DNA from: a virus
Taxonomy: Monodnaviria; Loebvirae; Hofneiviricota; Faserviricetes; Tubulavirales; Inoviridae
Reading direction: 5' to 3' (one strand)
Virus record (IMG/VR): IMGVR_UViG_2529292923_000001
DNA length: 7,781 bases
Part shown: positions 7,553 to 7,766 of the stretch, in pieces
Layout: every line of letters starts with the position of its first letter
Position numbering within the stretch: the stretch's first letter is position 1
Notes under the pieces: model-generated
Told to the model about the DNA's origin: nothing
The model's database searches: none
What the model saw: the letters and a program-made list of their open reading frames with translations, nothing else
Made by a program: the position numbers and the translations under genes

Positions 7553-7693
7553 ATGCACGACATGATTCTGGATTTACTAATGAAATACCTGATTGCCGGT
7601 AGTCTGTTCGGCATGTTTTTGTTCAGCGTCATAACAATAGTGTTGCCAATCGTCCTGAGGGCACACAATAAAATCAACAGAAGCAACGACTGA
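7553..7693 (+). CDS. 46-aa single-transmembrane peptide (hypothetical accessory gene)
   Basis: ATG at 7553, TGA at 7691-7693. MHDMILDLLMKYLIAGSLFGMFLFSVITIVLPIVLRAHNKINRSND has one roughly 23-residue hydrophobic helix and a basic C-terminal tail. A strong terminator follows. No good Shine-Dalgarno, and it is below the ORF-track cutoff. Confidence 0.35.
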   Translation: MHDMILDLLMKYLIAGSLFGMFLFSVITIVLPIVLRAHNKINRSND

Positions 7694-7730
7694 ATACACA
7701 ACAGTGCGCACAATGGCGTTATGTATAAAA

Positions 7731-7766
7731 AGGCCGCTGCGGTGGAAAGTATCGCAGCGGCCTTTT
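7731..7766 (+). terminator. rho-independent terminator (potentially bidirectional)
   Basis: 9-10-bp GC-rich stem (7731/7732-7740 ggccgctgc pairing 7754-7762/7763 gcagcggcc) with a 13-nt loop, followed by TTTT (7763-7766) and preceded by AAAAA (7726-7730). Confidence 0.7.

Follow-up and report, generated by a model that had tools for sequence, protein, structure and literature searches.

The stretch of DNA analysed here (IMG/VR virus record IMGVR_UViG_2529292923_000001; 7,781 bp, hereafter the window) is a filamentous Inovirus-type prophage of Escherichia coli, integrated at the chromosome dimer-resolution site dif. Its core genes lie on the minus strand, while a small regulator, positioned like rstR, is transcribed divergently from them and is followed on its own strand by an open reading frame (ORF) of 46 codons that ends just before the phage attachment site, attP (Table 1). 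This ORF, the subject of the present analysis, is almost certainly a real protein-coding gene; its predicted product is a single-pass inner-membrane protein of an uncharacterised small-protein family, small membrane accessory peptides of filamentous phages and attP sites of this type being already known. Copies of the prophage that are identical or nearly so adjoin hipBA in 15 complete E. coli genomes, where tandem arrays are frequent, and megablast of the whole window against deposited phage records gave no match. Among the loci compared (designated L001 onwards), the left junction was read at L005 1437-1463 as ATTTAACATAATATACATTATGCGCAC followed by TGTTATC, that is, reverse-complement dif and then phage sequence, while at the right junction (L001 10560-10600) a hybrid site gives way to host DNA adjoining hipA, and a tandem junction between prophage copies was read at L001 2560-2600. 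dif is regenerated on one side of the prophage, as in CTX-type integration at the host dif, and these junctions verify the placement of the ORF beside an att site in the initial annotation.

Table 1. Features of the prophage and of comparable loci (positions refer to the window unless a locus is named).
Feature	Position	Strand	Description
Left prophage junction	1..13	+	XerC-arm half of host dif/attP, ACATTATGCGCAC
Core genes		-	Rep, single-stranded DNA (ssDNA)-binding protein, pVIII candidate, pIII-like, pVI (DUF2523), zot/pI, pIV secretin
pVIII candidate	4695-4970	-	In the morphogenesis operon
RstA-like Rep	5468-6694	-	33% identity to CTXphi RstA
Small rstR-positioned regulator	6999-7211	+	70-71 amino acids (aa), phrog_2503; PHROG match 1.5e-27; a coding sequence in RefSeq relatives
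Two hairpins after the regulator stop	7266..7324		7266-7290 and 7297-7320, then TTTAT; local folds with z about -3
GC-rich portable module	7344..7458		115 nt, core GGCAGGCGCTCCCGTCCTCGACCCTGCGGGCGGGTGCGGCTGGCGT; between the hairpins and the promoter candidate
Weak sigma-70-like promoter candidate	7489..7517	+	TTTAAA-17-TAGAGT (8/12); ends 36 nt before the ATG
46-aa single-pass inner-membrane protein gene (predicted)	7553..7693	+	ATG 7553, TGA 7693; product MHDMILDLLMKYLIAGSLFGMFLFSVITIVLPIVLRAHNKINRSND
attP arm 1, dif-like	7703..7729	+	AGTGCGCACAA (XerC-arm-like, 7703-7713), TGGCG, TTATGTATAAA (XerD-arm-like, 7719-7729)
GC-rich apical hairpin	7732..7762		10-bp stems 7732-7741 (GGCCGCTGCG) and 7753-7762 (CGCAGCGGCC); 11-nt loop 7742-7752
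attP arm 2, inverted	7763..7781	+	TTTTCAACATAACGCGTGT; circular or tandem form continues with C and ACATTATGCGCAC (window 1-13)
Slot loci with other cargo	L026 7559-8994; L027 7666-8998 and 16826-17902		Between regulator and attP

By itself an ORF of 46 codons is unremarkable (the window holds 86 ORFs of at least 25 aa), and its coding status rests on comparative data instead of its length. Intact homologues of 46-57 aa were found in L003, L006, L007-L009 and L010-L022, and they fall into five diverged sequence types sharing 30-76% identity, with all copies intact. A 46-aa homologue with 76% identity is carried by L003, a satellite-like element of 3.7 kb; 50-aa homologues (65% identity) occur in the IncF plasmid remnants L007 and L008; 51-aa homologues (45-50% identity) occur in a distinct filamentous prophage carried by a Citrobacter plasmid, as well as in seven IMG/VR contigs; and 57-aa homologues, at 30% identity, are known to PGAP as hypothetical protein WP_001409659.1. 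Residues D7, L8, L9, K11, G16, G20 and P32 are invariant in the alignment of the five types, G16xxxG20 being a putative helix-packing motif, and the stop codon always lies 5-12 nt before attP across the subtypes. The conservation in homologous regions on which the initial annotation had made the gene depend is thereby borne out.

The substitution pattern points in the same direction. Synonymous sites are saturated (proportion of synonymous differences, pS, 0.75-0.95), while the proportion of nonsynonymous differences (pN) is 0.3-0.48 by the Nei-Gojobori method, with values of 0.95 and 0.31, respectively, for the window against L009; dN/dS is 0.08 for L007 against L009 and 0.35 for the window against L007. 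Substitutions are most frequent at the third position of the plus-strand codons, followed by the first and then the second, which is the most constrained. The alternative, that the ORF is a by-product of constraint on origin-proximal or attP-proximal DNA or lies opposite an antisense gene, draws on two observations: PGAP omits the 46-aa and 51-aa types, even in genomes with an identical copy, and calls a minus-strand ORF over the L008 copy; moreover, none of the seven variants has a stop in the antisense -1 frame, and pN/pS is alike in both frames. The use of dN/dS to discriminate between these frames was found to be uninformative because their wobble positions coincide, and it counts against the coding interpretation that standard dN/dS alone cannot exclude the antisense -1 frame. 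Nevertheless, the openness of that frame is expected from T at the second position of hydrophobic codons, and it has neither a conserved start nor conserved ends, whereas peptide length, start, stop and invariant residues are kept in the plus frame despite saturated wobble positions. Replacements are also more conservative in the plus frame, where the mean BLOSUM62 score is the higher in 14 of 15 pairs (for example, 2.89 versus 2.09 and 1.60 versus 0.55). Together with the constraint on second positions and a Shine-Dalgarno (SD) sequence before the plus-strand ATG in two subtypes, these features favour the plus frame and make a non-coding origin very improbable. Comparison of mosaic prophages can thus validate a gene of 46 codons.

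Database entries for the exact 46-aa protein call it no more than "hypothetical protein" or "putative membrane protein". Two word-indexed searches covering 5.8 billion proteins returned only Escherichia/Enterobacteriaceae members of the family, and an exhaustive search of 1.84 billion representative proteins with a hidden Markov model found nothing outside it. No match above cut-off was obtained for the peptide in Pfam, PHROGs, NCBIfam or PADLOC; a profile search of the PDB gave chance transmembrane matches only; tblastn of deposited phage genomes gave no match; and a scan of one genome per species gave no relative. As judged from these searches, the family appears to be narrow and confined to filamentous prophages of Enterobacteriaceae and to remnants of these. 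Small proteins are overlooked systematically, and the RefSeq pipeline annotates one subtype of this family only.

The description of the product as a single-pass membrane peptide with a basic tail, encoded opposite the phage core, agrees with the prediction made here. AlphaFold2, run with an alignment of 11 sequences, returned a single helix over residues 2-45 (pLDDT 88.6), and the most hydrophobic 19-residue segment comprises residues 17-35 (mean Kyte-Doolittle value 2.49). The flanks of this segment carry net charges of -1 (N-terminal) and +2 (C-terminal; +9 in the 57-aa subtype), from which an N-out/C-in topology is predicted by the positive-inside rule. Apart from G16xxxG20, the sequence features P32 and a basic C-terminal tail, RAHNKINRSND. 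The absence of a proper SD from the window copy is likewise confirmed, no word complementary to the anti-SD being present within 22 nt of the ATG; the copies of L003, L007 and L009 also lack one, while the SD of the two subtypes that have it reads GAGG or AAGGA. The promoter candidate, a match to the consensus that was found by a permissive scan and falls below the standard scan threshold, recurs as an identical motif in L003 and would give a short A-rich leader without SD. An internal terminator-like site at 7594-7613 was rejected because of its position within the ORF and because L003 does not conserve it.

Downstream of the gene, the initial annotation had placed a strong terminator of its own. 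The GC-rich hairpin is indeed present, but it is part of attP and belongs to an architecture of the CTXphi attP(+) type, since it is kept whatever occupies the preceding slot and since the second attP of L003 has an apical stem of the same shape and entirely different sequence. The attP module is unchanged without cargo (L004, L005), with the peptide gene and with other cargo (L026, L027), and the same architecture was found in nine loci, one of them with a different hairpin sequence. In the ssDNA fold, arm 1, which is conserved in all related loci, pairs with arm 2 to give a stem of about 110 nt (-43.7 kcal/mol, z -10.4), the dif-like duplex being interrupted midway by a bulge of 6 nt; the RNA fold of the hairpin region has -45.8 kcal/mol and z -6.4. 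As in CTXphi, with its forked attP1/attP2 hairpin, there are two inverted dif-like sites, an ssDNA stem that leaves a central bulge unpaired, regeneration of dif on one side, tandem arrays and an RstA-like Rep (33% identity), whereas the spacer of about 36 nt in the window forms a perfect GC hairpin and that of CTXphi measures about 90 nt (PMC3089051). Folded ssDNA attP features, along with those of ssDNA integration through XerC-only strand exchange, have already been ascribed to the attP sites of CUS-1 and YpfPhi (PMC3089051). The hairpin may also terminate transcription in both directions, with the better U-run on the minus strand (five T, against four on the plus strand), on which it would end transcription of the core operon while the phage is in replicative form, or block transcription entering from the host once it is a prophage. 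The terminator scan called the hairpin on neither strand, its 11-nt loop exceeding the limit of the scan, and the T and A runs beside it are also XerD-arm-like parts of attP. The Rfam scan of the window gave nothing relevant, with a chance-level match over the hairpin (E 0.85).

Upstream of the gene, the "long structured leader" of the initial annotation does not hold. The stretch of 340 nt between regulator and ORF consists of separable modules that are common to small rep plasmids and to phages without the peptide gene; as ssDNA, 7225-7470 folds no better than shuffled sequence (z -0.9), nor does the RNA 7518-7700, which starts at the promoter candidate and spans the ORF (z +0.09), the only local structure being the two hairpins after the regulator. 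Two misreadings are thereby corrected, in that the downstream hairpin belongs to the integration site and the "leader" comprises portable replication-associated modules. The segment with the two hairpins (7266-7324) is found only with an RstA-like Rep (window, L004, L006), is replaced by another hairpin module with Rep II/X (L003, L005), is absent with a 700-aa Rep (L012) and shares 84% identity with part of a 2.7-kb rep plasmid (L024; NZ_AP019859). It may represent a Rep-specific origin, the counterpart of ig-1 in CTXphi, and/or a terminator of the regulator. The GC-rich module recurs with 89-95% identity in L004 and L005, both of them phages without the peptide gene, and on two plasmids, L002 (IncF) and L023 (a rep plasmid of 2.6 kb). 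In L012, L013, L017 and L018, none of these intervening modules is present and the peptide gene follows the regulator stop after about 85 nt with a proper SD; based on this direct layout, the ancestral arrangement looks like a two-gene unit of regulator and peptide.

Further observations concern the GC-rich module itself. It recurs across filamentous prophages of different Rep types and "protein rep" plasmids of 2.0-2.7 kb, and in L023, the one small plasmid examined, its orientation relative to rep is as in the phage. Its minus strand holds an Arg-rich ORF of 26 aa (7375-7455), open in most copies, of which the start is CTG in the small plasmid. The module shows no strong structure, and a role as single-strand origin was not supported by its folding (viral strand z +0.84). 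On the IncF plasmid L002 (NZ_CP024150.1, 6001-6261), a copy of the module is followed by the promoter region and about 50 nt from the beginning of the ORF, at which point an IS3 insertion sequence (IS) cuts it off; this cut, at a position equivalent to window 7603, is seen on several IncF and related plasmids, and a partial protein among the deposited sequences (P0008) is disrupted in a similar way.

The peptide gene is an optional part of its prophage, as its absence from near-identical relatives demonstrates. In L004 and L005, about 215 bp with the promoter candidate and the ORF are missing, while the GC module and attP are retained; these phages have the same Rep, pIV, pVI and related proteins as the window and are still tandemly duplicated at dif. 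Since they integrate and form arrays without it, the gene is dispensable for prophage maintenance, integration and amplification. The attP module was found in 83 of 5,426 complete E. coli genomes, with the 46-aa type in about 16 of the 83, the 57-aa type in about 22 and the 51-aa type in about 12; up to 10 attP copies occur per genome, and multi-copy arrays of the peptide gene exist. In distant dif-integrated E. coli inoviruses with a related attP, other genes occupy the slot, on the regulator's strand and ending just before attP: a 139-aa protein with an AbiJ_NTD4/DUF7014 protein (PADLOC candidate PDC-S32, 4.5e-10), an MtlR-like protein with a DUF2971 protein (PADLOC candidate PDC-S31, 3.9e-48) and a 358-aa hypothetical protein. 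Variable ORFs of unknown function have been reported at the att end of YpfPhi and CUS-1 (PMC4266046). These phages, known here by description, their sequences lying outside the searched collections, are CTX-like, dif-integrated and from Enterobacteriaceae, and their ORFs (YPO2271/2272 and orf1/orf1a, respectively) resemble the peptide gene in their position beside an rstR-like gene and att. Given the unrelated genes of distant inoviruses and the variable ORFs of YpfPhi and CUS-1, the regulator-to-attP slot is a variable accessory locus, apparently with a defence flavour. The comparison across related prophages that the initial annotation had suggested, with the gene present in some and absent from L004 and L005, therefore upholds its view of an accessory, cargo-like gene for a membrane-acting peptide, while its notion of the usual cargo position of dif-integrating phages is right as to a variable slot and loose as to CTXphi. 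The ctxAB genes of CTXphi lie downstream of zot, on the core strand. The peptide gene stands instead on the rstR-like side, the place of CTXphi ig-1, and CTXphi has no gene between rstR and attP.

Two of these loci show additional peculiarities. L003 (NZ_CM176589.1, 8643-12305) is a unit of 3,663 bp with at least four tandem repeats at dif, encoding Rep II/X, an ssDNA-binding protein, an 87-aa ORF, a 201-aa helix-turn-helix protein, the small regulator and the 46-aa peptide, with two consecutive attP modules. Morphogenesis genes are lacking, and the unit has the look of a satellite of the full-length phages. In L027, a gene for a HigA-family antitoxin lies across attP from the slot, after pIV.

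As to function, the peptide is proposed to be a non-lethal, membrane-acting accessory factor that protects the lysogen by superinfection exclusion or defence, a proposal that has a little less than an even chance of being correct. Such a peptide would expose a short acidic amphipathic N-terminal end outside, span the membrane with a helix bearing GxxxG and proline, and hold its basic tail in the cytoplasm. Its place on the regulator's strand suggests expression in the lysogen, which would involve co-transcription with the regulator in some subtypes and, for the window copy, read-through or its own weak promoter. Through GxxxG the helix might pack against a helix of a host inner-membrane machine, or the peptide might associate with itself in the membrane, with the outcome that superinfecting filamentous phages would be excluded or other phages defended against. 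Tolerance of many-copy arrays, together with ordinary translation signals in some subtypes, argues for an action that does not kill.

Precedents for such a role are available among inoviruses, of which some hypothetical proteins exclude other phages (PMC6813254). PfsE (PA0721) of the Pseudomonas phage Pf4 is a tiny inner-membrane peptide of a temperate filamentous phage that is dispensable for virions and excludes superinfecting phage by acting on PilC, a host inner-membrane protein of type IV pili (PMC8764522). It could serve as a mechanistic model for the present peptide by analogy; profile and protein searches gave no similarity to PfsE, the profile searches returning only proteins of the peptide's own family. 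Furthermore, PfsE has 30 aa with an aromatic cluster, YAWGW (PMC8764522), which is found in no subtype of the peptide, and its gene belongs to the core operon, on the core strand, of a Pseudomonas phage; its N-terminus is reported to be cytoplasmic.

Several points weigh against the proposed protective role. The window copy has no SD, a promoter candidate of only 8/12 and a terminator-like hairpin between regulator and gene, which leaves its expression uncertain. Reading a function from the neighbouring cargo of distant phages is a weak argument, the PDC families of PADLOC being only candidates, and neither a partner protein of the peptide nor the receptor of the phage is known. Finally, three Rep types and several regulators accompany the gene, yet its link to attP persists, and this fixed linkage could mean a role tied to integration or replication.

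The latter possibility has been considered as that of a propagation helper, of which the basic cytoplasmic tail would tether replicative or ssDNA at the membrane or aid Xer integration or assembly. It would account for a gene that always abuts attP, whichever Rep (RstA-like, II/X or 700-aa) or regulator accompanies it, and that is retained even in the satellite-like L003; in addition, the acidic N-terminal end, hydrophobic core and basic tail recall inovirus coat proteins. However, L004 and L005 integrate at dif and form tandem arrays without the gene, unrelated cargo also ends at attP, which makes the adjacency a property of the slot, and the gene lies opposite a morphogenesis operon that has a pVIII candidate of its own. 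Nor does the peptide qualify as a coat protein, being encoded on the opposite strand and outside that operon, and absent from L004 and L005 that share the morphogenesis genes. Help in propagation is thus improbable. About the same holds for a modulator of host physiology (a moron) that would tune a transporter, a sensor kinase or a pilus/Tol component and be unrelated to phage exclusion. The conserved GxxxG and the invariant D/K/P pattern suggest a specific helix packing as such a modulator might require, the gene is on the regulator's strand, and modest in vivo fitness effects have been reported with CUS-1 and YpfPhi (PMC4266046). This idea suffers from the want of a known partner protein and of any resemblance, in Pfam, NCBIfam or the PDB, to small membrane proteins with a known regulatory role, and from other slot occupants that are defence-like instead of physiological; it is accordingly rated as rather doubtful.

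An unlikely, though somewhat weightier, alternative is a membrane-damaging toxin, either an addiction or abortive-infection peptide resembling those of type I toxin-antitoxin systems or a permeabiliser like PftP4, with weak translation signals keeping expression low and an undetected RNA or protein counteracting it. The size of the peptide, its single hydrophobic helix and its polar or basic C-terminal tail resemble type I toxins (Hok, Ldr, Ibs, TisB, Fst); SD sequences are missing from the window, L003, L007 and L009 copies; and the 57-aa subtype gave a weak, sub-threshold match to Fst (NCBIfam, E 0.039, score 13.8 bits, cut-off 26). A 33-aa membrane toxin of an inovirus provides a published precedent (PMC11769263): this protein, PftP4 (PA0726.1 of Pf4), is likewise a small, previously unannotated, membrane-anchored helix that is not needed for phage production, but its gene lies in the core operon, on the core strand, where it overlaps the stop of zot; the protein is lethal when overexpressed and permeabilises the membrane, and it has no sequence similarity to the peptide. 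An intact copy also persists in IS-rich IncF plasmid regions without phage genes. Phage-independent selection was considered for these IncF copies and rejected as weak, remnants of IS256, IS21 and IS3 lying around them and the two plasmids being near-identical.

The type I toxin-like architecture suggested initially has not stood up to the comparison. No minus-strand promoter-like site was found in or next to the ORF in the window or in L006, even at 8/12, and the weak sites of other subtypes are not at conserved positions; the search for an antisense RNA, made on the sequence, thus yielded no conserved antisense promoter-like site, and nothing relevant from Rfam. In contrast to type I toxins, the family also has no conserved structured 5' untranslated region, the leader being unstructured, and some subtypes (two, with a good SD) are placed operon-like directly behind the regulator. 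Family matches above cut-off were not obtained in Pfam, NCBIfam or PADLOC, so that among four testable marks of a type I toxin only a small (<60 aa) hydrophobic peptide is present. Natural loss of the gene in L004 and L005 has left no trace of an antitoxin, and the tolerated multi-copy arrays argue against strong toxicity. A protective, non-killing factor remains the reading preferred here.

Extending that reading, it is tentatively suggested that filamentous phages of enterobacteria possess a new family of small exclusion or defence factors of the inner membrane, with the peptide as its founding member, and, at the same time, that the regulator-to-attP slot of dif-integrating inoviruses is an unrecognised hotspot for the swapping of defence genes (the peptide, AbiJ-like, DUF2971/PDC-S31 and others). 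If the peptide does block phage entry or tune a membrane machine, no such factor would have been described earlier for the filamentous phages of the CUS-1/YpfPhi kind that inhabit E. coli and related bacteria. In Xer-dependent phages, the slot next to att is suggested by the present finding as a place to look for defence genes.

Some features of the remaining prophage deserve mention. In the window, zot/pI (1530-2491, minus strand) is split into ORFs of 241 aa and 75 aa, while a 99%-identical relative encodes a single protein of 352 aa; compared with that relative, there is a frameshift in a T-run within the membrane segment as well as an in-frame deletion of about 32 codons. The window copy of the prophage may thus be virion-defective, or the frameshift may be a homopolymer sequencing error. 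The pIII-like ORF (2862-4385, minus strand) contains a (Gly-Thr/Gly-Ser)n repeat at window 3150-3340, and its length varies by strain (507 aa in the window against 551-567 aa in L001, L004 and L005). Between a 65-aa ORF (phrog_3104) and the regulator, window 6862-6995 bears repeated ATGCGCG/CGCGCAT motifs along with the sole two promoter-like sites of the window above the scan threshold, one on each strand; this region is probably an operator/promoter switch, the counterpart of ig-2 in CTXphi.

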